Source of the DNA: Acetomicrobium hydrogeniformans
GTDB lineage: Bacteria; Synergistota; Synergistia; Synergistales; JAFGMB01
DNA: 64,000 bases
Assembly (NCBI GenBank): GCA_016841745.1
Contig: JAENYO010000007.1
Span: forward strand, 9,408 to 73,407
Direction of reading: 5' to 3'
The notes beneath the pieces were generated by a model that did not search any database, was not told the origin of the DNA, and saw nothing but the letters and a program-made list of their open reading frames with translations. This document shows, one piece after another, positions 23,660 to 39,088 of the stretch. The translations under genes were made by a program, and so were the position numbers. Numbering within the stretch: the first letter of the stretch is position 1; every line of letters begins with the position of its first letter.

Positions 23660-24940
23660 TCAGCTTCCCTTTTCACCAACAAGGGATGGATCCAGGTCAC
23701 AACGCAACTTGATAGCCGGTTTTGATATAACTACTATTCCGGAGTCTTCATCAAGGTGGTATCTCTCCCTGTCATATTGCCTGTCATAACCTATTACGGT
23801 GTTTGCCGGGATCTCATTATTGGAATCTACAATTACTCTGCGAAGCTGACATCCCTCATTGATAATAACATCATGCCCTATAATGCATTCTTCCACCACT
23901 GATTTTGGATGGATTACGCAGTTTCTTGAAAGGACTGATCTGTGAACTACTGCCCCGAAGACACGACTTCCCTCAGAAGCAAGACTTCCCATAATAGAAC
24001 AGATCTGGCCCTTGACTGGATAGAAATATGAAGGCGGGTCGGCATAGGAAACGGTTCTTATGGGCCAATCCGGGTTGTATAAAGTCATTTTGGAATTATG
24101 CTGGAGAAGGTCCATGTGAGTTTGCCAGTAGGCCTTTAAGGTTCCCACATCTCTCCAGTATGGCTCATCTCTACCCGGCAACTGGTTTGCTGAAAAATCA
24201 TATGCAAAAATCCTGCATTTATCGTGCCATTTGGGGAAAATGTCTTTCCCAAAATCGTGGCTGCTTGAAGGATCATGGGCATCTCCGATAACTGTTCTTT
24301 CAAGTATCTCTCTTTCAAAAATATAATTTCCCATGGAAACGTAGCAAAAACCTGGTCTACCTGGTATTTCCGGAGGGTCAGCAGGTTTTTCAACGAAACC
24401 CGTAATTCGATCACTTTCATCTACAGCTATGCATCCGAACTGGGATGCCTCAGCTTTTGGAACAACATTGGCAGTTACGGTAATATCAGCTTCTTTTTCC
24501 ATGTGATAATCCAGGACTTGTCGAACATCCATTTTATATATGTGATCCGCTGCAAAAACACATAACCTGTCTGCATCGTATTTTGTAATAAGGTGTATGT
24601 TCTGAAAAACAGCATCGGCTGTTCCCTGAAACCAGTGTTCTCCACTCCACATCTGGGCTGGAGCAAGGGTTACAAAAAGATCCCTGCCCCTCATAGCACC
24701 GCCGAACTGCCAGCTGCGTTCGATGTGTTCCGTCAGGGACTGGCTTTTGAACTGAATAAGAACATAAACAGAATAAATTCCACTGTTGATAAGGTTTGAA
24801 AGGGCGAAATCAATTATCCTGTACTTGCCCGCAAAATGAACTGCAGGCTTTGCACGGTATTTTGTAAGAGGCATGAGCCTGGTACCTTTTCCTCCTGCCA
24901 GAACGATTCCAAGAACTCGTCCATGTCTTTTTGCCTTCAT
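23660..24940 (-). CDS. glgC: glucose-1-phosphate adenylyltransferase
   Basis: LAGGKGTRLMPLTKYRAKPAVHFAGKYRIIDFALSN signature. 426 aa. Confidence 0.95.
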   Translation of the reverse strand: MKAKRHGRVLGIVLAGGKGTRLMPLTKYRAKPAVHFAGKYRIIDFALSNLINSGIYSVYVLIQFKSQSLTEHIERSWQFGGAMRGRDLFVTLAPAQMWSGEHWFQGTADAVFQNIHLITKYDADRLCVFAADHIYKMDVRQVLDYHMEKEADITVTANVVPKAEASQFGCIAVDESDRITGFVEKPADPPEIPGRPGFCYVSMGNYIFEREILERTVIGDAHDPSSSHDFGKDIFPKWHDKCRIFAYDFSANQLPGRDEPYWRDVGTLKAYWQTHMDLLQHNSKMTLYNPDWPIRTVSYADPPSYFYPVKGQICSIMGSLASEGSRVFGAVVHRSVLSRNCVIHPKSVVEECIIGHDVIINEGCQLRRVIVDSNNEIPANTVIGYDRQYDRERYHLDEDSGIVVISKPAIKLRCDLDPSLVGEKGS

Positions 24941-24984
24941 ATTTCTCCCTCCAATCTGATCTTGCCGAAAATGTGTAATTGAGG

Positions 24985-26475
24985 TTACTTTCCCTCAATC
25001 TTCTGATTGTATATCCGGGAATAAACAGCCTGGTATTCGGGGGCTGAATGGTTCCAGGAAAAATCCATCTTCATTCCTCTATCCCTTATACTATTCCATC
25101 TATTCTTATTTTTAAAGGATTTAAAAGCCCTTTGAAGAGATGACAGCATTGCATGAGATGAAAATTCAGAAAAAACGAATCCAAAACCTTCACTATTACT
25201 GTCAGCATCAAGAACAGTATCGGCAAGGCCGCCAACAGACCTGACAACGGGGACTGTTCCGTACCTGAGGGAAATCAGCTGGGAAAGACCGCATGGTTCG
25301 AAGAGTGATGGCATCAGAAATATATCTCCTGCACCATAAACAAGATGTGCCAGAGGCTCATCATATCCTTTCACAAAAGAGACTTTATCAGGGTATTCCC
25401 TGGTCTTTTTGAAAAGAGCTTCTTCATACGTTTTTTCGCCGCTTCCTAGAATAAATATCCTGCCTCCCCAGTTGATGATCTGTTCAATGCCCTCGAGCAT
25501 CAGTTCTATTCCCTTCTGTTTGTAAAGTCTACCCACCATAGTGATCAGCGGACTGCAGTTTTTTTCCCAGCCTGTCTTTTCAAAAAGCGTTGATCGGCAG
25601 ACCATTTTCCCAGACATGTTCCCCCTGTCATAATTGGAAGGAAGAAAGCTGTCACTTGACGGATTCCAGTAATCTGTATCAAGACCATTAAGGATTCCGG
25701 AAACTTTTGAGATGTTTTGTTTTACGACCCCCTCAAGACCCATTCCCATGGATTTATGAGTTATCTCTGATGCGTAACGGGGACTGACGGTTGTTACTGC
25801 ATGAGATGCAATAATGGCTCCTTTCAGAAGGTTTACAGAGTTATAATACTCAAGGCCCTCCATGTGAAATGCTTTATTCAATCCCCATCCTTCAAGCACT
25901 TCCGGTTTGAGAATTCCCTGGTGGGCCAGATTATGGATAGTGAGAACCGTCCTGTATTGGTTCTGATAACAGCTGAAGTAGGGATGCCATTTCATTGCTA
26001 TAGGAACTATGGAAGTAGACCAGTCATGTAAATGAAATATATCCGGTGTCCATGGGATAGCATTGGAGATCTGAAATGCAGCGAAGGAAAGGAAGATAAA
26101 GGGTAGAGCAGTTGTCTGGTTCAATTCTCCAGGGTATATCCCGGGATCGTTGAAAATATCAGGGTTATCAAGGACATAAACAGGAGTAGTCCCATACTGT
26201 ATTTTCCAGAGCCTGGATGAGTAGACCCGCCAGTTGATTGAAAGGTCTATGTTGCGCCTGATCCTGGTAATTCTGTAATCCATTTTTTCTGCTTGTTCGA
26301 AAACACCTGGAAATGCAGGGATCAGTACCCTGGCATCGGTTCCAATTCTGTTAAGTGCTCCAGGGAGGGAAGATATAACATCAGCAAGTCCACCAATCTT
26401 TGAAAAAGGAGCCATTTCCGGAGCCACATGGAGGACTTTGAATCCTCCTTCTAAATGGTCAGACAAAAAGATCAC
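24985..26475 (-). CDS. glgA: glycogen synthase (GT5)
   Basis: KIGGLADV motif near the N-terminus and C-terminal PSLFEPCGLSQL. The start is uncertain (GTG 26475 or TTG 26466). Confidence 0.9.
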   Translation of the reverse strand: MIFLSDHLEGGFKVLHVAPEMAPFSKIGGLADVISSLPGALNRIGTDARVLIPAFPGVFEQAEKMDYRITRIRRNIDLSINWRVYSSRLWKIQYGTTPVYVLDNPDIFNDPGIYPGELNQTTALPFIFLSFAAFQISNAIPWTPDIFHLHDWSTSIVPIAMKWHPYFSCYQNQYRTVLTIHNLAHQGILKPEVLEGWGLNKAFHMEGLEYYNSVNLLKGAIIASHAVTTVSPRYASEITHKSMGMGLEGVVKQNISKVSGILNGLDTDYWNPSSDSFLPSNYDRGNMSGKMVCRSTLFEKTGWEKNCSPLITMVGRLYKQKGIELMLEGIEQIINWGGRIFILGSGEKTYEEALFKKTREYPDKVSFVKGYDEPLAHLVYGAGDIFLMPSLFEPCGLSQLISLRYGTVPVVRSVGGLADTVLDADSNSEGFGFVFSEFSSHAMLSSLQRAFKSFKNKNRWNSIRDRGMKMDFSWNHSAPEYQAVYSRIYNQKIEGK

Positions 26476-26507
26476 CTCTGTTCCGGATGGAAAGATCTTC
26501 TCTGATT

Positions 26508-28244
26508 TTACATCCCCAGGAATTCGATACCGTAGGCCTGTTCACAATATTCACGGACGACCCTGTGGGTGTTGAAATAACTGGCATTAAGGGCAATGAT
26601 ATTTTTCATCATCCCGATCCAGCCTTCCCTGTCTTTGTAATAAAGGGGGATAACCTTTTCTTCGAGCTTCCTGTAGAGGTCCTCTGCATCTTTTGTTTCA
26701 TCATAGCTTGACAGGAAATTTTCTACCGCCTCCGGTCCGATCGCCCATCCTGTTACTCCTTCGATACAACCTTCAATCCACCAGCCGTCCAGGATCGAAA
26801 AATTTGGGACCCCATTCAGGGCACATTTCATGCCGCTGGTTCCTGAGGCTTCCCTGGGTCTGCGGGGAGTATTAAGCCAGAGATCAACTCCCTGTGTCAA
26901 GAGCGCACCTGTTTCCATATCGTAATCTTCAAGGAAAACAAGGGGAATATTGTCTCCGAGAACCTCAGACAGGCCTATTATCTTCTGAATGATTCCCTTG
27001 CCACCTTCATCTCGGGGATGAGCTTTTCCTGCAAATACGAGCTGGATTTTTCCCGAGGCTATATCCAGTAGTTTGTGAAGGTCGGAAAAAATAAGATCAG
27101 CCCTCTTGTAAGGGGTGGCTCTTCTGCCGAAGCCTATGGTGAGGATATTTTCATCAAGCCTGATGTCCTGTGTATCCTTAATATATGAGATCAGTCTGGA
27201 TTTGGCTGACATATGAGCCTTCCATATCTTGTTACCGGATATATTGACGGACTGTACCATCCTGGCAGGTGCGTTTATCCAACCAGGAATGGATGAATCA
27301 AAGATGAGTTTCATTTCAGGGCTGATCCACGTTCCAGGGTGGACCCCGTTGGTTATTGAATGAATGTCCTCTTTTTGGAACATTTTTCTACTGACTTCGG
27401 CATGTTTTCTGGATACTCCATTAACAAAGGAGCAGTAGCGCATCCCCAATTCAGTCATGGAGACACCTTCCTGAGAAAGCATCTTTCTTAACTGGTTTAC
27501 AATGTTAACGCTCATTACCTTTTCAACCAGTTCGTATGAGAAGTGGTCATGTCCAGCCGGAACCGGCGTATGGGTAGTGAATACACCCCGTTCACGGATT
27601 TTCTGGAAATTTTCAAAACCCTCTTCCCGTAACATTTCCAAAACAAGGAATGCCGCATGGCCTTCATTAAGGTGAAATTTTCTAAGATTGTTAAATCCTA
27701 TGGAACGGAGCATTCTCAAGCCGCCAAGCCCCAGGATCAGTTCCTGACAGAGGCGATATCTTTCATCACCTCCATAGAGGCTGCCGGTAAGGGCTCGGTC
27801 CTTTGGATCATTTCCTTCAATATCAGTATCCAGGAAATAAACTGGTATGGTATAACCAGTATTTCCTGTGATTTCATGTACCCAGACCCTGATCATGATT
27901 TTCCTCTGTTCAAGGGTTATGATTATTTCATTGGGAAGGAGTTCCATCTCTTCAGAAGGATCCCATTCGGCAGGTTTTTCAACCTGCCGTCCATTTATAT
28001 CCAACTCCTGCGTAAAGTAGCCCTTTCTGTAGAGCAGGGTAACTCCCACCATGGGTACTGCCAGATCTGCGGCACTTTTCAAAATGTCTCCAGCCAGAAT
28101 CCCGAGTCCTCCTGCGTATGTGGGCATGTTTGCCTTGATTCCTATTTCCATTGAAAAATATGCAACGGTCCTGAAAATGGGATCAAAGTCCATGATACCC
28201 TTAAGCGATTTTGTCGTGTTAACACCACACTTCATAAGTGTCAT
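26508..28244 (-). CDS. glgP: alpha-glucan phosphorylase (GT35, short form)
   Basis: 578 aa with AYFSMEIG, GGLGILAGD and the PLP-lysine region EASGTSGMK. Confidence 0.85.
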   Translation of the reverse strand: MTLMKCGVNTTKSLKGIMDFDPIFRTVAYFSMEIGIKANMPTYAGGLGILAGDILKSAADLAVPMVGVTLLYRKGYFTQELDINGRQVEKPAEWDPSEEMELLPNEIIITLEQRKIMIRVWVHEITGNTGYTIPVYFLDTDIEGNDPKDRALTGSLYGGDERYRLCQELILGLGGLRMLRSIGFNNLRKFHLNEGHAAFLVLEMLREEGFENFQKIRERGVFTTHTPVPAGHDHFSYELVEKVMSVNIVNQLRKMLSQEGVSMTELGMRYCSFVNGVSRKHAEVSRKMFQKEDIHSITNGVHPGTWISPEMKLIFDSSIPGWINAPARMVQSVNISGNKIWKAHMSAKSRLISYIKDTQDIRLDENILTIGFGRRATPYKRADLIFSDLHKLLDIASGKIQLVFAGKAHPRDEGGKGIIQKIIGLSEVLGDNIPLVFLEDYDMETGALLTQGVDLWLNTPRRPREASGTSGMKCALNGVPNFSILDGWWIEGCIEGVTGWAIGPEAVENFLSSYDETKDAEDLYRKLEEKVIPLYYKDREGWIGMMKNIIALNASYFNTHRVVREYCEQAYGIEFLGM

Positions 28245-28316
28245 CCTCTACTACCTCCTGTTACCTTTTCTCTCCAGTATTCTCCTGTAGAAAAGCGTAA
28301 GATCCGATACTCCTGA

Positions 28317-29834
28317 TCAAGAACCCTCTATATTCAACCTACCGAATATGGCAGTTATTTCATAAAATCTTTCAGCAAGAGAACCTTCCAAATAGGAAGG
28401 GTCTATTCTCCATTCCCAGTTACCTCTGGAGATAGCAGGTCTGTTTGTCCTGGCCCAACTGCCAAGTGCCAGCAGATCCTGCATTGGAATAATACAAGTC
28501 GTTGCAACTGATACCATGGCCATCCTTATCAATTCCCATGATACATTATCGCCATCGGCTAGAGAACCATTATACAGGTTCAGGGTTTGTTTCTGTTTCT
28601 CAGAGAGTTCCTCTTCAAACCATCCCTTTGTGGTGTTGTTATCATGGGTTCCCGTGTAGACTATATTGTTTGGTGTGTGGTTATGGGGGAGATAAGGGTT
28701 GTTTTTCATGTCTCCGTCGAATGCAAACTGGAGTACAAGCATTCCCGGGAGACCTAGTTTTTCCATAGCCTGATCCACGTCAGGAGTTATTACACCCAGG
28801 TTTTCGGCAATGATGGCAAATTCGGTGAATTGTTCAACGAGTCCTTCAAAAAAGGCATTGGATGGACCTCTTTCCCAGTGACCTTTTACAGCTGTATTTT
28901 CACCAGATGGAATTGACCAGTATGAAAGAAAGCCCCGAAAATGATCTATACGAAGAAGGTCGCAGATCCGTCCAGCATGACCGATCCTGTTATACCACCA
29001 TGAAAAACCGTCTTCTTCAAGTTTATTCCACAGGTAAAGAGGATTACCCCAACGTTGTCCATTCTCACTGAAATAATCGGGAGGAACTCCCGCTACAGCT
29101 TGAGGATATCCGGATCGGTCAAGTTGGAAGTATTTTCTGTTGGCCCATACGTCTGCACTATCGAGATCGACATATATGGGCATATCACCAAGTATATCGA
29201 TCTTTTTATGTCTGCAGTATTCGTGAAGGTCTGTCCACTGTTTGGAAAAGAGGTACTGTACGAATTTCAGATAATCCAGTTCCCTTTCAAGAGTCAGCTT
29301 AGCTCTGGAAAGGGATTCCGGATTCCTGTCCCGGAAATCTTCTGGCCATTCATACCAGGGTTTTTCCCGAAAATATCCTTTTAATGCTTTAAAAAGAACG
29401 AAATCATCCAGCCAATAACTGTTCCCTCTGCAGAAACTGCTATAACTCTTTGTATAATTCATTTCTGTTGATCTCTGAAATGCTTCTACAAGGATTTCTG
29501 TTTTAAATTTTTCTACGAGAGCATAATGGACCCTGTCATTTCCAAAGTCTGGTGTATCCAGGAGACTTGCCTTCCTGAGCAGCCCATCTTCAAAAAGCAT
29601 CTGGGGACTAATATAAAGAGGATTTCCGGCAAAGGCCGAAACCGAGCTGTAGGGAGAATTGCCCGTAGCCTGTTGTGTCATGGAAAGAGGCAGGATCTGC
29701 CATACTGATTGGCCTGATTTAGAAAGGAAATCACAGAAACACCTTGACCCGGGTCCCATATCTCCGATTCCAAACCTTGAAGGCAGGGAGAATAGGGGCA
29801 TGAGAATACCACTTCTTCTTTCCTTATGAATCAC
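28317..29834 (-). CDS. malQ: 4-alpha-glucanotransferase (GH77 amylomaltase)
   Basis: 505 aa with RSGILMPLFSLPS, RIDHFRGF and the GTHDN motif. GTG start after GGAGGG. Confidence 0.9.
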   Translation of the reverse strand: MIHKERRSGILMPLFSLPSRFGIGDMGPGSRCFCDFLSKSGQSVWQILPLSMTQQATGNSPYSSVSAFAGNPLYISPQMLFEDGLLRKASLLDTPDFGNDRVHYALVEKFKTEILVEAFQRSTEMNYTKSYSSFCRGNSYWLDDFVLFKALKGYFREKPWYEWPEDFRDRNPESLSRAKLTLERELDYLKFVQYLFSKQWTDLHEYCRHKKIDILGDMPIYVDLDSADVWANRKYFQLDRSGYPQAVAGVPPDYFSENGQRWGNPLYLWNKLEEDGFSWWYNRIGHAGRICDLLRIDHFRGFLSYWSIPSGENTAVKGHWERGPSNAFFEGLVEQFTEFAIIAENLGVITPDVDQAMEKLGLPGMLVLQFAFDGDMKNNPYLPHNHTPNNIVYTGTHDNNTTKGWFEEELSEKQKQTLNLYNGSLADGDNVSWELIRMAMVSVATTCIIPMQDLLALGSWARTNRPAISRGNWEWRIDPSYLEGSLAERFYEITAIFGRLNIEGS

Positions 29835-30005
29835 CGAAAACTCCCTCCTTTCATCTTTGTATTAAAAGGTTAGCATTTTAAAACGAATATAACAACTATA
29901 CTGGAATGTTTTCAGTCTTTCTCGATTAACGGAGTATGGACTCAGACTGCTATAATTCTTGTAGGGACAGCGGGTGTTGCTTCCGCAAGAGGGAGGAGTG
30001 AATAA

Positions 30006-31931
30006 ATGGAGCGTTCTTTATCAGAGGATGGTATTGGAAAGGCCAGCCTGTTTTCAGACCTTGATGTTTTCCTTTTCAGGGAAGGAACCCACTGCAACCT
30101 TTTTGAAAAGCTTGGTTCCCATGAATTAGTCCATTCTGGTTCAAAGGGTACGTATTTTGCGGTCTGGGCGCCAAATGCGGTAGAAGTGTCTCTTATCGGT
30201 GATTTTAATCAATGGAAACAGGGAGAGAATATGCTTTCCTTAAGAAATGACGGATCGGGTATATGGGAGTGTTTTATCCCTGGCATAGGGAAAGGCTCCC
30301 TTTACAAGTACCATATTTGTTCCAGATATCATAACTATTCTGTTGATAAGGGAGATCCCTTCTCTTTTTTCTGGGAAGTGTCTCCCAGAACAGCTTCTGT
30401 TGTATGGGACCTTGAATATGAATGGGGTGATGAGGACTGGATATCCCGGCGTGAAGTAATGAATCTGTCCACCTCTCCAATTTCAATATATGAAATCCAC
30501 CTGGGATCCTGGAGACCCGGAGGCAATGGTTCCGATCCTCTTACTTACAGGGAAATAGCCCCACTTCTTTCAGAACATGTGAAAAAACTTGGCTTTACCC
30601 ATGTGGAATTTCTCCCACTTATGGAACATCCTTTTTATGGTTCATGGGGATACCAGACAGTGGGCTATTTTGCTCCGACAAGCCGCTATGGAACTCCCCA
30701 GGACCTTATGTACCTTATCGACTATCTTCATCAGAAGGGGATCGGGGTCATACTGGATTGGGTCCCGTCACATTTCCCTAGTGACGAATATGGACTTGCC
30801 AGATTTGATGGTACGGCCCTTTTTGAACATGAAGATCCCCGGCAGGGTTTCCATCCTGATTGGAAAAGCAGTATCTTCAATTATGGGAGAAAAGAGGTAC
30901 ATGCGTTCCTTATAAGCAGTGCCATGTTCTGGATCGAACATTATCATGCAGATGGTCTCAGGATTGATGCCGTTGCGTCAATGCTGTATCTGGATTATTC
31001 CAGGGAAGAGGGACAATGGATACCCAACAGGTATGGCGGAAGGGAAAACCTTGATGCCATTGATTTACTGAGAAAACTTAATACTGCCGTTTTTGAGCGA
31101 TTTCCCCATGTTCAGATGATCGCTGAAGAATCAACCTCCTGGCCCATGGTTACCAGGCCGGTTCATGTTGGAGGTCTGGGTTTCTCCATGAAATGGAACA
31201 TGGGGTGGATGCATGACGTCCTGGAATATATGAGCACTGATCCCATCTTCAGGAAGTATCATCACGACAAGCTTACCTTCAGTATCTGGTATGCTTTTTC
31301 CGAGGATTTCCTGTTACCTGTATCCCATGATGAAGTAGTTCATGGCAAGGGGTCTCTTCTTAACAAGATGCCGGGGGATACGTGGAGAAAATTTGCAAAT
31401 ATGAGAGTCTTTTTAGGTTATATGTATGCCCACCCGGGAAAGAAACTCCTTTTTATGGGTGTCGAGATGGGGCAGATGTCTGAATGGAATCATGACGGAT
31501 ACCTGCACTGGGATTTGTTGGACCACCTTCCCCACCAGGGTGTATCTTTATGGATAAGGGACCTGAACAGTTTGTACCGAAATGAAAGGGCTCTTTATTC
31601 TACAGATTATGATCCAAAGGGATTTGAATGGATCGATTTTGGCGATGCGGAAAAAAGTATAATTGCTTTTTTGAGATCTGATGGTAAGTCCCTTATTCTT
31701 ACTGCCTGTAACTTTACGCCTGAGCCTAGATATGAATACAGGATAGGAGTTCCTTATTCTGGATACTGGAGTGAAATTCTAAACAGTGATTCCCATATAT
31801 ATGGTGGAACCGGTCACGGAAATTTTGGAGGCATAGAAGCAGAGAAGATTCAACATCATGGACGGCCCTTTTCTCTTATGGTTACATTACCCCCGCTCTG
31901 CTGTATCATTTTTAAACTTTCAGAGGTGTAG
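30006..31931 (+). CDS. glgB: 1,4-alpha-glucan branching enzyme (GH13)
   Basis: 641 aa with DWVPSHF, GLRIDAV, AEEST and SHDEVVHGK motifs. Confidence 0.95.
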   Translation: MERSLSEDGIGKASLFSDLDVFLFREGTHCNLFEKLGSHELVHSGSKGTYFAVWAPNAVEVSLIGDFNQWKQGENMLSLRNDGSGIWECFIPGIGKGSLYKYHICSRYHNYSVDKGDPFSFFWEVSPRTASVVWDLEYEWGDEDWISRREVMNLSTSPISIYEIHLGSWRPGGNGSDPLTYREIAPLLSEHVKKLGFTHVEFLPLMEHPFYGSWGYQTVGYFAPTSRYGTPQDLMYLIDYLHQKGIGVILDWVPSHFPSDEYGLARFDGTALFEHEDPRQGFHPDWKSSIFNYGRKEVHAFLISSAMFWIEHYHADGLRIDAVASMLYLDYSREEGQWIPNRYGGRENLDAIDLLRKLNTAVFERFPHVQMIAEESTSWPMVTRPVHVGGLGFSMKWNMGWMHDVLEYMSTDPIFRKYHHDKLTFSIWYAFSEDFLLPVSHDEVVHGKGSLLNKMPGDTWRKFANMRVFLGYMYAHPGKKLLFMGVEMGQMSEWNHDGYLHWDLLDHLPHQGVSLWIRDLNSLYRNERALYSTDYDPKGFEWIDFGDAEKSIIAFLRSDGKSLILTACNFTPEPRYEYRIGVPYSGYWSEILNSDSHIYGGTGHGNFGGIEAEKIQHHGRPFSLMVTLPPLCCIIFKLSEV

Positions 31932-31933
31932 TA

Positions 31934-34354
31934 ATGACTATTTATGTATGTGTTCACGGTCACTTCTACCAGCCGCCGAGGGAGAATCCCTGGCTGGAAG
32001 AAGTCGAGATCCAGAGAACTGCTGCGCCATATGAGAACTGGAACGAAAGAATAACGGCAGAATGCTATTCTCCCAACGGAGCTGCCCGTATTCTTGGAGA
32101 AAAGGGTTTGATAACCGCAATCCAGAACAATTATTCCAGGATGAGCTTTAACTTTGGACCGACCCTTCTATCATGGCTGGAAGTGCATTCACCTCATACT
32201 TATGAAAACATATTGAGGGCTGATACAGAAGGTCGGAAGAGATTTTCTGGCCATGGCCCTGCAATCGCCCAGGCCTACAATCATATGATCCTCCCCCTTG
32301 CTTCGGACAGGGATAAAAGAACCCAGATATTATGGGGTATCGCTGATTTTGAAAAGAGATTTAAACGTTTTCCAGAAGGCATGTGGCTTCCAGAAACTGC
32401 AGTGGATCTGAAAACCCTGGAATTCCTTTCAGAAGAAGGCATACAGTTCACCATCCTTTCACCATATCAGGCTTCCAGGATACGTCTTTCAGAAGGTGTT
32501 CCCTGGACAGGTGTAAGGGGAGGGAAAATAGATCCATCCACTCCTTATAGCTGCCAGCTTCCTTCTGGAAGGACTATAGCCCTTTTTTTCTATGATGGAA
32601 GAATTTCACAGGATATTGCTTTCGGCGGATTGCTCAGAAATGGTGAAATGTTTGCTCAACGATTTCTTTCCAGATGGGACAGGAAAACAGGTGAAGGAAG
32701 AATTATTTCTGTCGCGACTGACGGAGAAACGTACGGACATCATCAAAAATATGGAGACATGGCTCTTGCATACTGTCTTGACCGGATAGAAGGAGAAATG
32801 GGAGCTGAGCTTACCATATTCGGGGAATTCCTGGAGAAACACCCCGCCATAAGGGAAGTAGAGATAATAGAGAACAGTTCCTGGAGCTGTGTGCATGGAG
32901 TGGAGAGATGGAGGGGCGATTGTGGCTGCTGTACTGGAATGAACCACGATTGGAACCAGTCCTGGCGTAAGCCCCTCAGGGAAGGGCTTGACTGGTTACA
33001 TACGGAACTGGAATCCATCTTTTTAGACTCCATGAAAGGAAAGGTCAGGGATCCATGGCTCACAAGAGATGAGTATATACATTTAATCCTTGAAAGATCA
33101 AAGGAGAACATGGATAACTTCATCAAATCTCATTCAGAAAGTGAACTTTCAGTTGTTGACAGGGAACTGGTAATGAAATCTCTGGAGATGCAGCGCTCGG
33201 CTATGCTTATGTTTACCAGTTGCGGATGGTTCTTTGATGATCTTTCGGGCATCGAATCTCTCCAGATACTTCGTTATGCTGCTCATGCCATTCAATATGC
33301 CATGGAGATATCTGGAAATAACCTGGAACCAGCTTTCCTTAATTTTCTTGGAAGGGCGAAAAGCAACATTCCGGATCAGGGAACTGGAGTGGAGATTTAC
33401 AGCAATTCTGTGAAACCATTCAGTTTTGACCTTTCCAGGTTGGGAGCACATTACGGTATTCTTTCATTGTTTACGGATGAACCTTCTAACATCTCGATGT
33501 ATTGTTACAAAGTTATTCCACTTAAAGAATTTTCTCTGAATGCAGGTAAAATAAAATTTTGCGGGGGATGCCTGAACATAGAATCAGATATTACCCTTGA
33601 ATCGTGTCGTACCTGGTATGCTTCTCTTGGTCTTGGCGGGCACAATGTACTATGTTCCCTTTCTCCAGATCTTGGAGAAGATGTTTTCAGCAGATTCATT
33701 GAGGAGGTTCGATTATTCTTCAGCAAGGGAAATATTCCTGGCGTTATCAGTACCATAGACGACTATTTTGGTGGCCATGATTATGATCTGGGCCATATTT
33801 TCCGGAATGAACAGCAGAAGGTCTTTAATTCCATAATTCGAGGGGATCTTTTGCGTCTTGAATCTTTTCTCAGGGAGATAATTGAAGATGATTATCTGTT
33901 AATGAATTTTATCTCTTCAGTACAGATGCCAGTGCCTCCCCAGTTTCTTAAAGCTGCAGAAGTTGTCCTCAACTCGGGAATCAGGGAAGAATTTGATAAG
34001 GATTTACCAGATCTCGAGAATATCAGAAATTCCTTCGATACTGCAAAACGATGGAAGATAGCCCTGGATATGGATCTTTTTGAACTTTCTGCTTCAAGAT
34101 GGATTAATAGCCAGATACAGGATCTTGAACAAAATTGTTATGATGTCCCTGTTTTGATAAATTTAGCGGCTTTTTTGAAAGTTATCGGTGAAATCGGTTT
34201 GAAGCCGGATCTATGGTTCAGCCAGAACATATTTTTCAGAATAAAAACTGGTTGTGGTTATGCGGGGCTTGCGATGAATGAAGTTGAGGGGTTTACAGTA
34301 GAATGGAAGATCCATTTTGAGGAACTGGGTCGCCTTTTAAAAGTATTGATCTGA
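31934..34354 (+). CDS. GH57-family glycoside hydrolase with long C-terminal extension
   Basis: N-terminal HGHFYQPPRENPW, a GH57 hallmark. 806 aa. The start is 3 nt after the glgB stop. Confidence 0.8.
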   Translation: MTIYVCVHGHFYQPPRENPWLEEVEIQRTAAPYENWNERITAECYSPNGAARILGEKGLITAIQNNYSRMSFNFGPTLLSWLEVHSPHTYENILRADTEGRKRFSGHGPAIAQAYNHMILPLASDRDKRTQILWGIADFEKRFKRFPEGMWLPETAVDLKTLEFLSEEGIQFTILSPYQASRIRLSEGVPWTGVRGGKIDPSTPYSCQLPSGRTIALFFYDGRISQDIAFGGLLRNGEMFAQRFLSRWDRKTGEGRIISVATDGETYGHHQKYGDMALAYCLDRIEGEMGAELTIFGEFLEKHPAIREVEIIENSSWSCVHGVERWRGDCGCCTGMNHDWNQSWRKPLREGLDWLHTELESIFLDSMKGKVRDPWLTRDEYIHLILERSKENMDNFIKSHSESELSVVDRELVMKSLEMQRSAMLMFTSCGWFFDDLSGIESLQILRYAAHAIQYAMEISGNNLEPAFLNFLGRAKSNIPDQGTGVEIYSNSVKPFSFDLSRLGAHYGILSLFTDEPSNISMYCYKVIPLKEFSLNAGKIKFCGGCLNIESDITLESCRTWYASLGLGGHNVLCSLSPDLGEDVFSRFIEEVRLFFSKGNIPGVISTIDDYFGGHDYDLGHIFRNEQQKVFNSIIRGDLLRLESFLREIIEDDYLLMNFISSVQMPVPPQFLKAAEVVLNSGIREEFDKDLPDLENIRNSFDTAKRWKIALDMDLFELSASRWINSQIQDLEQNCYDVPVLINLAAFLKVIGEIGLKPDLWFSQNIFFRIKTGCGYAGLAMNEVEGFTVEWKIHFEELGRLLKVLI

Positions 34355-34802: not shown

Positions 34803-35192
34803 TCATTGTTTTATCAGCAGATCAGAAAGTAGTTCCTTGATTATCTGGGCATCTTTTTTAAGGATGGAGTCCAGGTTCATTTCTTTTTCATCTGTCTGTA
34901 AAATCAACCGTGCAAACATAAAGCTGGTTTCACAGGAAACAGAAACTATTTCTGACAGGGGAATGGTTTCCTGAAAACCATCGATTATCTTTCTGTAAAG
35001 GAATATAACCTTTCTGTCAGTTAAGACCATAAGCCATTTCCTTTCCTTGTACAGGACAGAGGTCAGGGCCTTTACGATTTCTTCCCCTTCCATAAGCTGA
35101 GGCAAAAAATTCAGTTCAGTCTTGTTCGACCATCTTCGGAAATCCTTTAATCTCAATATTTGTCCTCTAATAGAAGATTCATCAATTGGCAT
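34803..35192 (-). CDS. small bacterial PH-domain-like protein
   Basis: 129 aa. The pattern GEEIVKAL..., LVLTDRKVIFL, and IPLSEIVSV is reminiscent of YokE/bPH-type domains. Weak call. Confidence 0.4.
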   Translation of the reverse strand: MPIDESSIRGQILRLKDFRRWSNKTELNFLPQLMEGEEIVKALTSVLYKERKWLMVLTDRKVIFLYRKIIDGFQETIPLSEIVSVSCETSFMFARLILQTDEKEMNLDSILKKDAQIIKELLSDLLIKQ

Positions 35193-35407
35193 ATCATATC
35201 CTCCTGCTTTATCTGAAAAATAATTTGTTTGAACATAGATGATTATAAGTTAAAATTGTAGTCTTTAGGGGTTAAGTATACTTATTTACAACCTGCTTGT
35301 GGATGGTGTAACTTATGGGGTAGAATGTCTGTATCTGGATTACTAGCTATTAGGATAAAAATATAGCCTGATAAAATTATTCAGGTTCTGTATCAGGGAG
35401 GATAACC

Positions 35408-36178
35408 ATGTATTCTTCCTTTAGGCTTATGATAGCATGGAAAGTTTTCTTCTTCCTTCTGATCTTGTCATTATTATTTATTTGCCCAAGGGAGGTAGCC
35501 GCTATGAATACTGACAAGAGTGTTCTTTCAAAGAAGCCCATTCTTGATGAAGAACTGCCTTTAAAGGTTGAAACTGCGACGTTTGCTCTGGGCTGATTCT
35601 GGGGACCTGATTCCCGGTTCGGGATAATTCCAGGAGTTATACGTACACGGGTGGGTTATTCTGGCGGGACGTTAAAGGATCCCAGCTACCATGATCTGGG
35701 TGACCATACTGAAAGTATTCAGATGGACTTTGACCCCGAAAAGCTTTCCTTTTCTGAGTTACTTGAAGTTTTCTGGGCAAGTCATGATCCTACACAAAAG
35801 GCTTCATCCCGTCAGTATATTTCTATTCTTTTTTATCATAATGAATCGCAGAAACAAAAGATCATCGAAAGTATATCAGAAGAAGAGAGAAAACGTGGAA
35901 GACTTATTCTAACAGAAGTGATTCCCTTCCGTGAATTTTACCTGGCTGAAGAATATCACCAGAAATATCGCTTGAAAATGTTCAGGGAGTTTATGGATGA
36001 ATATTCAAAGATCTTTGTAAGTGATAGAGAACTTACTGATTCGACTGCTGCAGCAAGGCTTAACGGATATGTTTCCGGGATGGGTGATCTTTTACAGCTT
36101 GAAAATGAGATAGACCTCCTCGGTTTATCTTCAGCCGCTCAAGATAAACTCAGAAAGATGGTATCTGCTTCAGAATAG
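35408..36178 (+). CDS. msrA: peptide methionine-S-sulfoxide reductase MsrA, selenocysteine form (in-frame UGA at 35594-35596)
   Basis: ORFs 35408..35596 and 35651..36178 are in one frame. Read-through gives ...ATFALG-U-FWGPDSRFGIIPGVIRTRVGYSGG...FDPEKLSFSELLEVFWASHDPTQ, so the UGA sits exactly at the catalytic Cys of the GCFWG motif. An alternative start is ATG 35504. Confidence 0.8.
35606..35634 (+). promoter_or_regulatory. candidate bacterial SECIS hairpin for msrA
   Basis: cctgattccc-GGTTC-gggataattccagg folds into an imperfect stem. The apical loop GGUUC begins 22 nt after the U of UGA. Folded by hand only. Confidence 0.45.
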
Positions 36179-36256: not shown

Positions 36257-37912
36257 ATGGTAGATGAAATGAGGTCAGAAAAGGGATCGTGTAATCTTCT
36301 CACTTCTTTCGATAACCTCTTTAACTTGAAGGATATCTCCGATTTTCGAGGAGAAATTATTCAATTGCTGCGCCCTCTTTCCAGTTCCATCTCTTCAGAT
36401 AATTCCTTTTCTTTCCAGGGACAAATACTTCGGTTTTATGATGAGTTCCTTGAAAGAAGCTACCTTTCAACCATAGTCGAGGAAACAGAAGATATAGTAA
36501 CAATGTTCGATCTAGACCTTAAGCTGCTAACAGCTAACCGGGCTTTTGTAAAGGCTGTCTGGAAACATGATATTACCGAAGTCGTCGGAAAAACGCATGA
36601 AGAGATTTATAGCCCCCATATTGATATGGAGACAGTGAAGCAATATTCATCGGATGAAGCTCTAGCCCAGACTCTCCCGAAGGGAAATTTTATCGAAAGA
36701 GAAAGAAATATTATTTATCCCGACGGAGTGGAAAAATCTTTTCACAGTCGTAAGTTTCCCCTGTTTAACCTGGAGGACCAGGTTATTGCTACAGCAACAA
36801 TTGCGAGGGATATCTCTTCTCTGAAGCTTATCCAGAGGGAGTTAAAGGAAAGTGAGAATAAGTACCGTTACCTTTTTCAGAATGCTTCGGACAAGATATT
36901 CCTGCTTAAAATTCGCGATGATGGTCTTCCCGGTCGTTTTGTGGAAGTGAACAACGCAGCATGCCGTTCCCTGGGTTATTCCAGAAAAGAATTTTTATCT
37001 ATGGCGTTGCGGGATATTGAAGGAATAACCGGTCCCCCAAATATGGAAAAAATAATGAAAATACTCAGAAAAAAGGGAAGGACGACTTTTGAGGCAGACC
37101 ACGTGAGAAAGGATGGGTCAGGAATCAATGTCGAGATAAGTGCTCATCTTTTCCATCTTGAAGGGGAGCCATTGATGCTATGTATATCCCGAGATATTTC
37201 AGAAAGGAAGGAGCGGGAGGTCTTATCCCACAACTATCAGCGTCAGCTCCAGGGGCTGTCATATAGAGTGACTTATCTTGAGGAAAAGACCAGAAGATCG
37301 ATAGCCCACCAGCTCCATGACAATATAGGTCAGGACCTCATTCTCTCGAAATTAAGACTTGAAATGGCCCGCAAAGGTCTCAGTGATCCCGAAACATGTT
37401 CCCATCTGGATGAAGCTTTCCGTAATCTGGAAAATGCCATATCCTACGTTCGTGACATTACCTTTGAATTGAGCCCTCCTGTTCTCTATGAACTGGGCTT
37501 CTCCGCAGCAGTAGAATGGCTGGGCGAAAAACTAGAGAAACAGTCTGGCATCAAAATTTCCTGTCAATTTAAGAATATTCCTTCAGAAATGCCTGATGAT
37601 ATCAAAGCCTTTCTTTTCAGGGCAGTTCGGGAACTGCTGACAAATGTTATCAAACATGCAGAAGCGACAGTAGCTGATGTTTCCGCGACCGTTATCAAAG
37701 GCGATCTCCGGGTATCTGTCAGGGATAATGGAAAGGGTATCCGCAGACTATCTGATCATGAATATTCAGAGAAAGATTACAGTTTCGGCCTCTTCAGCTT
37801 AAGGGAACAGGCCAGAACCCTGGGAGGCTTTTTGAGTATTGGACGTAACAGAAATGGAGGGGCTAGAGTCTCCATTTCTCTTCCTTTGGCTTTAGGAAAG
37901 AGGGAACCATAA
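36257..37912 (+). CDS. cytoplasmic PAS-domain sensor histidine kinase (HisKA_3 type)
   Basis: Two PAS-like segments, H-box HQLHDNIGQDL, and an ATPase domain with NVIKHA and DNGKG. No TM segments are evident. Confidence 0.85.
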   Translation: MVDEMRSEKGSCNLLTSFDNLFNLKDISDFRGEIIQLLRPLSSSISSDNSFSFQGQILRFYDEFLERSYLSTIVEETEDIVTMFDLDLKLLTANRAFVKAVWKHDITEVVGKTHEEIYSPHIDMETVKQYSSDEALAQTLPKGNFIERERNIIYPDGVEKSFHSRKFPLFNLEDQVIATATIARDISSLKLIQRELKESENKYRYLFQNASDKIFLLKIRDDGLPGRFVEVNNAACRSLGYSRKEFLSMALRDIEGITGPPNMEKIMKILRKKGRTTFEADHVRKDGSGINVEISAHLFHLEGEPLMLCISRDISERKEREVLSHNYQRQLQGLSYRVTYLEEKTRRSIAHQLHDNIGQDLILSKLRLEMARKGLSDPETCSHLDEAFRNLENAISYVRDITFELSPPVLYELGFSAAVEWLGEKLEKQSGIKISCQFKNIPSEMPDDIKAFLFRAVRELLTNVIKHAEATVADVSATVIKGDLRVSVRDNGKGIRRLSDHEYSEKDYSFGLFSLREQARTLGGFLSIGRNRNGGARVSISLPLALGKREP

Positions 37913-37913
37913 T

Positions 37914-38573
37914 ATGGCTGCATTAAAGATCATGCTTGTAGATAATCACAGGGTTATGAGAGAGGGTCTTCGCATCCTTATAGATTCTGAAAAGGATATG
38001 AAGGTTATTGCCGAAGCTGATAATGGGAGAGAAGCTCTTTCCATATCAACAAAACATAGACCAGACATAATACTGATGGATGTTATGATGCCTGATATGA
38101 ACGGTATAGAAGCTGCCAGACGGATCCATTCACAATTTGAAACCGTAAGGGTTCTTGCCCTTTCCATGTACGATGATCGTCATTATGTTGCAGAAATGCT
38201 TCGGGCAGGTGCTTCGGGATATCTTCTCAAGGACTGTGCTTTCATGGAGCTTTCGAGGGCGATCCGTACGGTCGCTGAGGGTAAATTCTACCTCAGTCCT
38301 TCCATATCGGGGATGGTAATAGACGAATATATCAAAATGCTTGAAAATGGTGGTGGAGAAGAAACCATTTCTACCCTTACCTCAAGAGAAAGAGAGATTC
38401 TTCAACTGATAGCTGAAGGTAAAAGCACAAGGGATATTGCCACTTCTATAAATGTTAGCGTGAAAACTGTAGAAACGCACCGTTACCATATAATGCAGAA
38501 GATCAATGTCACTTCCATCGCCGAACTGACAAAGTTTGCCATTAGAGAAGGATTAACTTCAGTTTGTGAGTAG
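37914..38573 (+). CDS. NarL/LuxR-family response regulator
   Basis: REC domain (IILMDVMMPDMNG) plus a LuxR HTH (LTSREREILQLIAEGKSTRDIA...SVKTVETHR). Confidence 0.9.
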   Translation: MAALKIMLVDNHRVMREGLRILIDSEKDMKVIAEADNGREALSISTKHRPDIILMDVMMPDMNGIEAARRIHSQFETVRVLALSMYDDRHYVAEMLRAGASGYLLKDCAFMELSRAIRTVAEGKFYLSPSISGMVIDEYIKMLENGGGEETISTLTSREREILQLIAEGKSTRDIATSINVSVKTVETHRYHIMQKINVTSIAELTKFAIREGLTSVCE

Positions 38574-38923
38574 TTACTCTCTAGCTGGAGGTAGTGTTTG
38601 TCCCGAAAAAATATTTTTTCTTGTTAGTGCAGTCTTTGAACATGAAAAATAAGGTTTTTTTACTTCCCTATTCAGAATTTCCCCGATTTCATACTGTTCA
38701 GTGTGAAATTATACTGAAAGTCCATCACCTTTTCCCTGAATTCGAAAATGCCTTTCTCGAAGCAGGATCTGGTTATATCCTGCTTCGAGGTTAGAGTACT
38801 TTTCTTTCTTATGAATCAGTGCTACATGGAAGTCTTTTCCTATTACAAAATATTTCCAGGAGGACTACTGTTCTGAAAAATATGATCGGCGAGAGATTCT
38901 TTTTGAGGGAGGAGTTGAACAGA

Positions 38924-39088
38924 ATGGAAAAGATAAGAGATTTGCTAAGGCAGAAAAGATTTCTGGAAGCTTCGGAAAAGGCACTGGAAATGAACAGTTC
39001 CGAATGGGAAGCCATGTATATTAAGGTGCTGGTAGAACTGAACAGGGAAGAGAAAAGAACGAGTGAACTCTCTCTCAGGAGTTTCTAG
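38924..39088 (+). CDS. small hypothetical protein (54 aa)
   Basis: ATG 38924 lies 9 nt after GAGGGAGGAG and is followed by a terminator at 39121-39151. No homology recognised. Confidence 0.3.
   Translation: MEKIRDLLRQKRFLEASEKALEMNSSEWEAMYIKVLVELNREEKRTSELSLRSF

Follow-up and report, generated by a model that had tools for sequence, protein, structure and literature searches.

The window analysed here, a stretch of 64,000 nucleotides, very probably carries at 35408-36178 on the + strand one intact gene for a selenocysteine (Sec)-containing methionine sulfoxide reductase MsrA, of the type represented by CoMsrA of Clostridium (Alkaliphilus) oremlandii OhILAs, with Sec encoded by UGA. The sequence-only reading had seen in this region two open reading frames sharing a frame and interrupted by a single TGA, and translation of the 256 codons confirms it. 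ORFs 35408..35596 and 35651..36178 lie in a common frame on the + strand with 243 nt between their starts, the sole internal stop of the coding sequence is TGA 35594-35596 (context ATFALG*FWGPD), and the terminal stop is TAG 36176-36178. The frame is intact on both sides of the TGA. Read as Sec, the UGA supplies residue 63 at the catalytic position, in the motif G-U-FWG, and matches Cys16 of the CoMsrA construct.

The read-through protein belongs to the MsrA family, and the fold is intact around the UGA, as had been proposed. The PMSR profile (PF01625) matches residues 56-191 over profile positions 1-147 of 153 (E = 3.8e-40, 138 bits at a cut-off of 23.7). It is followed by the C-terminal helical domain at residues 205-242 (36020-36133, + strand), recognized by PF20939 ('Selenoprotein MsrA, helical domain'; E = 8.1e-08, 32.4 bits at a cut-off of 23.7). 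A search of the PDB returned 30 MsrA chains, with the CoMsrA entries 4U66, 4LWJ and 7C13 as the top matches (E about 1e-55). The alignment with CoMsrA is gap-free over 198 residues at 43% identity and runs on through the helical domain to residue 250 of the window protein. All active-site and substrate-binding residues listed in PMC4333827 are retained: G62-U63-F64-W65-G66, Y94, E102, Q136, Y137, H184 and Y187 occupy the places of G15-G19, Y47, E55, Q89, Y90, H137 and Y140 of CoMsrA. The sole cysteine of the protein is Cys26 in the N-terminal hydrophobic segment, and there is none past residue 63. The mature part is devoid of a resolving cysteine and belongs to the '1-Cys' (here 1-Sec) type.

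The in-frame TGA is conserved. It is also present in five syntenic relatives (protein identity 57-91%), among which the 62 codons upstream of it have accumulated no indels. A Nitrospirota MAG carries it as well. The six related loci keep the TGA with open frames on both sides; a degraded msrA in close relatives would have spoken against a selenoprotein. The same arrangement, with flanking frames open and conserved, occurs at not less than 120 metagenome loci (at least 120 matches) found by the pattern FA-x-G-UGA-FWGPD, which fixed positions 1-17 after the UGA and left positions 18 onward free of ascertainment. The contig scan for relatives favoured Cys forms because its pattern contained a Cys codon, and the Sec/Cys ratio is not readable from it. 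The dN/dS ratio is below 1 on either side of the TGA; upstream it amounts to 0.16-0.40 in the informative pairs, which corresponds to purifying selection. The 18 codons between the TGA and GTG 35651 are among the most conserved of the family, at the protein level included.

Immediately behind the UGA, nucleotides 35606-35634 of the + strand fold into the hairpin ((((..(((((...)))))......)))) of -8.7 kcal/mol, formed by a lower stem (35606-35609/35631-35634), an upper stem (35612-35616/35620-35624) and the loop GUU (35617-35619). It lies where the sequence-only reading had placed it, and GGUUC is found as described at 35616-35620, which are positions 23-27 if the U of UGA is numbered 1; in the minimum-energy fold G23 and C27 are paired, which leaves the GUU loop. 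The four criteria of the bSECIS model (PMC13188914, Fig. 2 legend) were applied by hand. The model has a loop of 3-9 nt on an upper stem of 4-16 bp, and here the loop has 3 nt (GUU), or 5 nt (GGUUC) if G23-C27 is opened, and the upper stem, from U19-A31 to G23-C27, is 5 bp long. It asks for a G within the first two positions of the loop, in most cases with G or U next to it, and here the loop starts with G24 and then U25. The distance from the UGA to the apical loop is 20 nt (positions 4-23) for an allowed range of 16-37 nt, and the folding energy of -8.7 kcal/mol lies under the limit of -7.5 kcal/mol or lower. Taken alone, the window hairpin is no better than chance (z = -0.48; 57 of 200 shuffles fold equally well or better), and neither does the 76-nt region around it surpass shuffled sequence (z = +0.23). 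By stability it ranks 105th of the 120 Sec genes listed. No SECIS or other credible Rfam family was found in the whole window at gathering thresholds or in the surroundings of the gene at E up to 10. The hairpin is real though weak by itself, and the support for a putative SECIS is comparative.

For this comparison 120 Sec-type genes among the matches listed were set against 79 Cys-type homologs. Three synonymous positions differ sharply between the two sets: position 21 is C in 94% of the Sec genes vs 34% of the Cys genes, position 24 is G in 93% vs 47%, and position 30 is G in 89% vs 19%. GC3 is equal overall (0.63 in Sec vs 0.65 in Cys genes) and neighbouring synonymous sites are fully mixed. 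These data demonstrate a Sec-specific constraint on the hairpin that the Cys homologs do not share. Two pairs covary, 23-27 (G-C in 87 and A-U in 13 sequences, Fisher 5e-8) and 19-31 (U-A in 66 and G-C in 16, Fisher 3e-9), and the values observed for the 8-bp helix are reached by none of 500 shuffles and beat all slid registers; the significance of both the Fisher and the shuffle statistics is overstated because related sequences are treated as independent. The family consensus hairpin is GACUCCCGGUUCGGGAGUC, an 8-bp helix that was named by hand and then tested by pair counts. In it 79.5% of the cells are paired, a percentage lowered because some members pair one register off (i+j = 49). RNAalifold on the 120-sequence alignment returned a mere 3-bp consensus.

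The mean folding energy of nucleotides 15-36 is -10.5 kcal/mol in Sec genes vs -4.7 kcal/mol in Cys genes (p = 1e-21), and the loop is exposed in 81 of the 120 Sec genes listed vs 5 of the 79 Cys genes. Divergent members of the family that use other codons still have the hairpin at the same place. The lower stem of the window hairpin was considered as a conserved element and rejected, as it is not conserved across the family; family-wide conservation is limited to the upper hairpin. Once relatives are compared, both the position of the TGA and the hairpin are far from chance. The original suggestion of a SECIS-like element is supported by the published model, the synonymous constraint and the covariation.

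Other explanations of the TGA have to be weighed against Sec. A nonsense mutation that turned the codon of the catalytic Cys from TGC or TGT into TGA, in a dead or decaying gene, would take one base change, gene callers handle the locus as a truncated gene, and the window hairpin is not significant by itself. Such a pseudogene is effectively refuted because the TGA and the frames are conserved. The codon is retained in six loci down to 57% protein identity, where synonymous sites are saturated, and these loci are free of frameshifts and other stops; the at least 120 further loci of the same arrangement, the dN/dS values on either side of the TGA and the Sec-specific RNA constraint behind it all argue against decay, and we consider a pseudogene extremely improbable. 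A sequencing or assembly error has a vanishingly small probability and is refuted because the same codon occurs in independent assemblies of different samples and sources (ENA, NCBI, Logan, JGI). The warning that annotation would break up this gene proved correct, with orthologs stored as truncated proteins of 175-181 aa and separate ORFs of 30 or 62 aa. It could be asked whether the locus makes two products, one a membrane peptide of 62 residues that stops at the TGA and the other an N-terminally truncated MsrA-like protein starting from GTG 35651, as both ORFs exist mechanically and gene callers give exactly these two. The 175-aa product, however, would lack the catalytic residue together with the first beta-strand and helix (GUFWG...RTRVGY), and the 18 codons between TGA and GTG are strongly conserved; two separate products are exceedingly unlikely.

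The UGA might also be read through with an amino acid other than Sec, namely Cys by a SelB-like or tRNA-based recoding, or Trp or Gly by a near-cognate or reassigned tRNA. There are precedents for such a reading, as a few bacteria are known to insert Cys at UGA or to have variants of recoding. Against it, TGA is the commonest ordinary stop in the window, where it ends 17 of 41 genes; a global reassignment is excluded because TGA is a normal stop there. Were Trp or Gly inserted at the catalytic position, the enzyme would be inactive. In its predicted fold the hairpin shows the loop with G and U, and the spacing, of a SECIS that binds SelB (PMC13188914), and the phylum is rich in selenoproteins (PMC5029168). 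On these grounds non-Sec read-through is very unlikely, and insertion of Sec is by far the preferred reading of the codon.

The window matches the Synergistales MAG OY762654.1 at 90.6% DNA identity over 20.5 kb, and the host is, by this similarity, a Synergistales bacterium. Sec is used by 13 of 14 sequenced Synergistetes genomes, and the selenoprotein richness of the phylum is already documented (PMC5029168). Among the selenoprotein genes to be expected in Synergistota are grdA/B, prdB and fdhA. Within the 64-kb window itself there are no selA, selB, selD or tRNA-Sec genes: ARAGORN found 0 tRNAs, Rfam gave 0 hits, and Pfam scans of 46 window ORFs returned no Sel families. A second selenoprotein gene was sought in the window through split ORFs and UxxC/CxxU contexts, and this gave just adjacent ordinary genes and noise. 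We infer that selABCD are encoded elsewhere in the genome, that Sec is really inserted, and that the enzyme is active and has a reductant.

By analogy with the established bacterial mechanism, decoding would proceed as follows. When the ribosome arrives at UGA 35594-35596, the downstream mRNA hairpin (upper stem 35612-35624) would present G24 and U25 some 21 nt beyond this codon and recruit SelB with Sec-tRNA(Sec), so that Sec would be inserted instead of termination. The product would be an enzyme of the CoMsrA type, composed of a catalytic domain and, at the C terminus, a helical domain. As it is of the 1-Sec type and has no resolving Cys, it would presumably reduce Met-S-sulfoxide via a selenenic acid intermediate and depend on an external thiol reductase for its recycling. 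Next to msrA, no partner for the supply of electrons was identified.

The putative SECIS resembles the bSECIS archetype of E. coli fdhF in that the hairpin directly follows the UGA on its 3' side, within the coding region, and has a small loop opening with G and then U on a 5-bp upper stem (8 bp in the family consensus). The critical bases of fdhF, G23 and U24 from the U of UGA, have their counterparts in G24 and U25. In contrast to fdhF, no bulged U is seen in the window hairpin, and its sequence is the family-specific GACUCCCGGUUCGGGAGUC, which doubles as the codons D-S/A-R/Q-F-G-S.

The closest known enzyme is CoMsrA, which also has Sec encoded by UGA within GUFWG (PMC4333827, PMC4479559). 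Neither mature protein contains a resolving Cys (1-Cys type), and both have the C-terminal helical domain, which CoMsrA needs in order to be active (PMC4333827). CoMsrA has been produced in E. coli as a native selenoprotein (PMC4479559). The precedent invoked in the sequence-only reading stands insofar as the A. oremlandii MsrA is documented to be more active in its Sec form than in its Cys form (PMC4333827, PMC4479559); its supposed rarity was overstated in view of the at least 120 metagenome loci. CoMsrA differs in that it is 209 residues long, has its Sec at position 16 and lacks an N-terminal extension, whereas the window protein has ~47 extra N-terminal residues that include a hydrophobic segment and an internal Shine-Dalgarno sequence with AUG. 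The hosts differ too, a diderm Synergistales here and a Gram-positive clostridium in the case of CoMsrA. Cys-type MsrA proteins of the same subfamily occur in Dehalococcoidia, Bipolaricaulota, Planctomycetota, haloarchaea and others. They share the fold and the motif FALG-C-FWGPD, and many of them likewise have the helical domain as well as signal or lipoprotein sequences at the N terminus, but they have TGY for TGA, show no hairpin constraint behind this codon and are more variable in the residues encoded over the hairpin region. 

The region upstream of the UGA has features of its own. A promoter-like site was read from the sequence at 35297-35326 (+ strand; TTGTGG 35297-35302, an 18-nt spacer and TAGAAT 35321-35326); it is missing from the output of the consensus scan, as its -35 hexamer agrees with the consensus at only 3 of 6 positions. 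Its CTTGT and TAGAATGTCT blocks are kept in all six related loci while the flanks have diverged; it is a putative promoter. The Shine-Dalgarno sequence GGGAGG (35396-35401, + strand) lies 6 nt upstream of the first ATG at 35408, with an SD-like motif at the equivalent place in five of five relatives. The scan found no terminator after msrA.

Residues 9-26, IAWKVFFFLLILSLLFIC (35432-35485, + strand), form a hydrophobic segment predicted to be a signal peptide or membrane anchor. It is conserved in frame in six of six loci, and its hydropathy maximum in the relatives is 2.2-2.9. Among the matches listed, a hydrophobic core is present in 79 of 109 distinct upstream ORFs of Sec-MsrA genes and in 0 of 218 translations in the other two frames; K or R stands just ahead of the core in 78 of the 79. 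Such a segment suggests export or membrane anchoring of the long form. For an exported enzyme, the glutaredoxin recycling shown for CoMsrA would be out of reach. Extracytoplasmic repair of methionine sulfoxide is the function of the Neisseria PilB/MsrAB system, from which the window MsrA differs in that neither a thioredoxin nor an MsrB domain is fused to it. With a functional N-terminal signal, the enzyme would also resemble MsrPQ of E. coli in repairing methionine oxidation outside the cytoplasm (PMC6316033), although MsrP is a molybdoenzyme unrelated to the window MsrA.

Behind the hydrophobic segment, a second GGGAGG (35490-35495) precedes an in-frame ATG (Met33, 35504-35506) located 30 codons upstream of the UGA (35490-35506 in all, + strand). 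This internal SD with its ATG is conserved in six of six loci. A Met lies 26-38 residues ahead of U in 47 of the 70 long-form Sec-MsrA genes listed, compared to 8-9 in control intervals, and a 5-mer SD motif between -16 and -4 is present in 35 of these 47 genes (background 8%). We hypothesize that the internal AUG may be used as a second start. One mRNA might then give two selenoenzyme forms, a long one from ATG 35408 carrying the signal or anchor and a short cytoplasmic one from Met33; this proposal is tentative, and we regard it as rather doubtful at present. The combination of an export signal and an internal start site in most Sec-MsrA members might be new. No description of a dual-form or exported Sec-MsrA was found in the literature searched, which is weak evidence of novelty.

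The enzyme type itself is already known, and the window gene leaves the understanding of both MsrA and Sec decoding unchanged. With the UGA read through, the enzyme is complete again and a Synergistales genome gains a selenoprotein. In metagenomes, at least 120 genes of this kind are picked up by the pattern FA-x-G-UGA-FWGPD. The SECIS GACUCCCGGUUCGGGAGUC, which constrains five codons, is a clean case of an RNA signal superimposed on codons, and it is useful as a key with which to search for genes that need re-annotation. If the predictions for the N-terminal region are true, an anaerobe would have a Sec-MsrA in its periplasm or envelope, and the exported or dual-localised protein, not the cytoplasmic CoMsrA model, would be the common form of this selenoenzyme.

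Translation of positions 35408-36178 on the + strand gives 256 codons with a single internal stop, TGA 35594-35596, which stands between ETATFALG and FWGPDSRFGIIPGVIRTRVGYSGG. The ORFs 35408..35596 and 35651..36178, with starts 243 nt apart, share this frame, as the sequence-only reading had stated. The window follows the standard code: of its 41 Pfam-supported genes, 17 end in TGA. With Cys put in place of the internal stop, the product matches the Pfam families PMSR (E = 3.8e-40, residues 56-191) and PF20939, 'Selenoprotein methionine sulfoxide reductase A, helical domain' (residues 205-242, 32.4 bits with a cut-off of 23.7). The top matches among solved structures are 4U66, 7C13 and 4LWJ-4LWM (E about 1e-55), 4LWJ being CoMsrA, the selenoprotein MsrA of Clostridium oremlandii (PMC4333827). 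Identity to CoMsrA is 43% across 198 residues in a gap-free alignment, and its residues G15-C16-F17-W18-G19, Y47, E55, Q89, Y90, H137 and Y140 are all retained. The UGA codon aligns exactly with the catalytic Cys16 of the CoMsrA crystal construct, which together with the two Pfam matches confirms its proposed position at the MsrA catalytic Cys. The only cysteine of the whole protein is residue 26, inside an N-terminal hydrophobic segment; the mature enzyme therefore belongs to the '1-Cys' type, as does CoMsrA (PMC4479559). Experiments have verified Sec-MsrA with the GUFWG/H motif as a family of bacterial selenoproteins (PMC13188914, PMC9312934); it has solved structures and a Pfam domain of its own, and the precedent invoked for this gene is sound. 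The window gene has every defining Sec-MsrA feature that could be tested. Its interpretation as a Sec-MsrA split by UGA is right, and the kind of enzyme has already been described.

Contigs of five relatives (57-91% protein identity to the window) were fetched for comparison. All five have an opposite-strand bPH-domain gene, msrA, a histidine kinase and a LuxR-type response regulator in synteny, and in each of them msrA consists of ATG, 62 codons, TGA within FA(L/S)G-TGA-FWGPD and a further 193-194 codons. They form two subgroups between which synonymous sites are saturated. A degraded msrA in close relatives had been named as a sign against the selenoprotein, and neither frameshifts nor additional stops occur in these five genes. 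The dN/dS ratio is below 1 on either side of the TGA (0.16-0.40 upstream and 0.09-0.35 downstream in informative pairs). The TGA is present in a Nitrospirota MAG locus as well, and a metagenome scan with a degenerate pattern for FA-x-G-TGA-FWGPD found at least 120 stretches. Among the matches listed, the frame upstream of TGA is open at every locus, and the loci reaching a stop mostly have about 185-198 MsrA codons after the TGA, a few ending early at 80-167. This type of Sec-MsrA is thus common in environmental bacteria, and its description as rare has to be given up.

The hairpin proposed downstream of the UGA is present at 35606-35634 and folds as ((((..(((((...)))))......)))) with -8.7 kcal/mol. 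With the U of UGA counted as 1, GGUUC stands at positions 23-27. In E. coli fdhF the critical bases are G23 and U24 on this numbering, an offset of one nucleotide from the window. The core pairs are U19-A31, C20-G30, C21-G29, C22-G28 and G23-C27; positions 16-18 are unpaired with 32-34, and the lower stem (35606-09 with 35631-34) is a local feature that the family as a whole does not share. When the bacterial SECIS model (PMC13188914, Fig. 2 legend) is applied by hand, the hairpin agrees with it in all four points: an apical loop of 3 nt, GUU (model 3-9 nt), with an upper stem of 5 bp (4-16 bp); G24 followed by U25 at the start of the loop (model G within the first two loop positions, usually with G or U next); a UGA-to-loop spacing of 20 nt (16-37 nt) and a minimum free energy of -8.7 kcal/mol (-7.5 kcal/mol or lower). 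Taken alone, the fold is unremarkable (z-score -0.48, with 57 of 200 shuffles folding equally well or better; z = +0.23 for a 76-nt region), and therefore the case for the hairpin must rest on relatives. It is a weaker form of the family consensus, ranking 105th of 120 in stability.

Four lines of evidence establish an RNA constraint on the region after UGA that is specific to Sec (TGA-type) genes. Since there are no indels after the UGA, 120 distinct Sec genes can be aligned codon for codon, with the consensus UGA UUC UGG GGN CCN GAC UCC CGG UUC GGG AGU C and an 8-bp helix of positions 16-23 with 27-34 around the loop G24-U25-U26. At positions 21, 24 and 30, all third in their codons, C, G and G are found in 94%, 93% and 89% of Sec genes versus 34%, 47% and 19% of 79 Cys-type homologs, while overall GC3 is alike (0.63 and 0.65) and the remaining third positions of the Sec alignment are fully mixed. 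The pair 23-27 is G-C in 87 and A-U in 13 sequences, U27 accompanying A23 in 13 of 28 and G23 in 2 of 89 (Fisher 5e-8, kinship ignored); the pair 19-31 is U-A in 66, G-C in 16 and U-G in 11, and C31 is found only alongside G19 (Fisher 3e-9, kinship ignored). In the named helix 79.5% of cells are paired and both-side changes occur in six of the eight pairs; no measure was equalled in any of 500 column shuffles, and this register exceeds all slid registers in percent of cells paired, both-side changes and covariation score. For nt 15-36, folding energies average -10.5 kcal/mol in Sec versus -4.7 in Cys genes (p = 1e-21), and C22-G28 is paired with G24/U25 exposed in 81/120 versus 5/79. The hairpin statistics are inflated because related sequences were counted as independent; the Sec-versus-Cys contrast and the neighbouring-synonymous-site control are free of this assumption. 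The hairpin also keeps its place in Sec-MsrA loci with divergent codons, for example L123 (GAGGAG...CUCCUC), L183, L166 and L192. Sec-specific synonymous constraint, covariation, folding and the bSECIS criteria together bear out the SECIS-like hairpin.

Several variants of this element were observed. The stem register is shifted by one nucleotide (i+j = 49) in three syntenic relatives, L003-L005 (positions 16-33), and in the loci L091, L147 and L185; the loop is then CGGUUC or AGGUUC, with GGUU still inside it, and the window sequence allows both registers. L123, L183 and L192, metagenome loci including TARA, form a divergent Sec-MsrA subgroup with the motif U-FWGPEE-F-S...GDGHTEALK; their codons after UGA differ, yet the hairpin formed locally is strong (-15 to -20 kcal/mol).

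The database search showed the msrA products of these nearest relatives in no form other than truncated proteins, 175-181 aa long. Gene callers reported a 30- or 62-aa ORF plus a 175-176-aa ORF on the four longer contigs and the downstream 181-aa ORF only on the fifth, so the anticipated misannotation affects all five relatives. Such calls could suggest a pseudogene or two separate products; both are very improbable, as are a UGA read through as something other than Sec and a TGA arising from a sequencing or assembly error. TRNA, RNA-family and Pfam scans found no selA, selB, selD or tRNA-Sec within the 64-kb window, nor was a second selenoprotein gene found there. Of the sequenced Synergistetes, 13 of 14 use Sec (PMC5029168), and this, along with the conservation data, makes the rival explanations improbable. 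Established here are a frame that is intact and conserved, the assignment to the MsrA family, conservation of the UGA, and a hairpin that is specific to Sec genes and has the right geometry.

CoMsrA has 209 aa with Sec16; the window protein has about 47 additional N-terminal residues, and its extension (35408-35503, residues 1-32) holds a hydrophobic signal/anchor-like segment (residues 9-26, 35432-35485) that is absent from CoMsrA. All five relatives keep the extension. Of 109 distinct Sec-MsrA upstream ORFs, 79 have a similar signal-like core (0/218 in the other two frames), directly preceded by K or R in 78 of the 79 and followed by a lipobox-like motif in 24. This gives most Sec-MsrAs the look of exported or membrane-anchored proteins, which may work outside the cytoplasm. 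About 20 residues upstream of Sec there is a loosely conserved (I/L)PPID motif. Past the hydrophobic segment, an internal Shine-Dalgarno GGGAGG (35490-35495, +) and an ATG (Met33, 35504-35506, +, 30 codons before UGA) are kept in the window and all five relatives. A Met 26-38 residues ahead of Sec occurs in 47 of 70 long-form genes versus 8-9 in control intervals, with a 5-mer Shine-Dalgarno motif before it in 35 of the 47 (background 8%); the combination is weaker among Cys-type homologs (13/29). Signal-less family members start approximately at this Met. The site may be what remains of the ancestral start; that it gives two isoforms, exported and cytoplasmic, from one gene is conceivable but rather unlikely.

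Window 25666-46168 is collinear, over 20.5 kb and at 90.6% DNA identity, with the nearest genome record, the 2.95-Mb chromosome OY762654.1 ('MAG: Synergistales bacterium'), and hence the window comes from a related species. Upstream of msrA lies a divergent bPH_3-domain gene (34803-35192, -); the genes directly downstream (36257-38573, +) encode a histidine kinase with PAS/HisKA_3 and a response regulator of the LuxR family. This neighbourhood is kept in the four long-contig relatives, and in L005 as far as its short contig extends; a regulatory connection to oxidative stress is possible. The leader 35297-35376, conserved in all six loci, contains promoter-like TTGTGG, an 18-nt spacer and TAGAAT (35297-35326, +) and, between the -10 box and the ribosome-binding site, two GATAAAA direct repeats (35354-35360 and 35370-35376), which may serve as an operator, conceivably for the neighbouring response regulator of LuxR type. 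Between the response regulator and a DctP gene, the intergenic stretches 38668-38723 and 38905-39051 are 78-87% identical to L003/L004, above the flanking genes (66-72%). Rfam gave nothing at threshold there (best L20_leader, 23.7 bits vs 58.7, and Termite-leu, 22.8 vs 51); in relatives a 50-73 aa ORF is called in this region, and the stretches may represent an unannotated small RNA, leader or small ORF. The remaining window genes are ordinary bacterial ones: a complete glycogen metabolism cluster (23660-34354; glgC-like, glgA-like, phosphorylase, 4-alpha-glucanotransferase, branching enzyme, GH57/DUF3536), two tandem paralogous gamma-glutamyltranspeptidase genes (1451-3181 and 3587-5278), TRAP transporters, lysine biosynthesis, an AsmA-like protein and two-component systems.

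By analogy with the bacterial pathway, SelB with Sec-tRNA(Sec) would bind the hairpin and bring Sec to the UGA (PMC9312934). As judged from CoMsrA biochemistry, the Sec residue would reduce Met-S-sulfoxide, the Sec form would likely be far more active than the Cys form, and, because a resolving Cys is absent, recycling would require an external reductant (PMC4333827, PMC4479559). Synergistetes is a selenoprotein-rich phylum (PMC5029168, PMC13188914), and the window gene is one more Sec-MsrA, from a phylum in which selenoproteins are to be expected.
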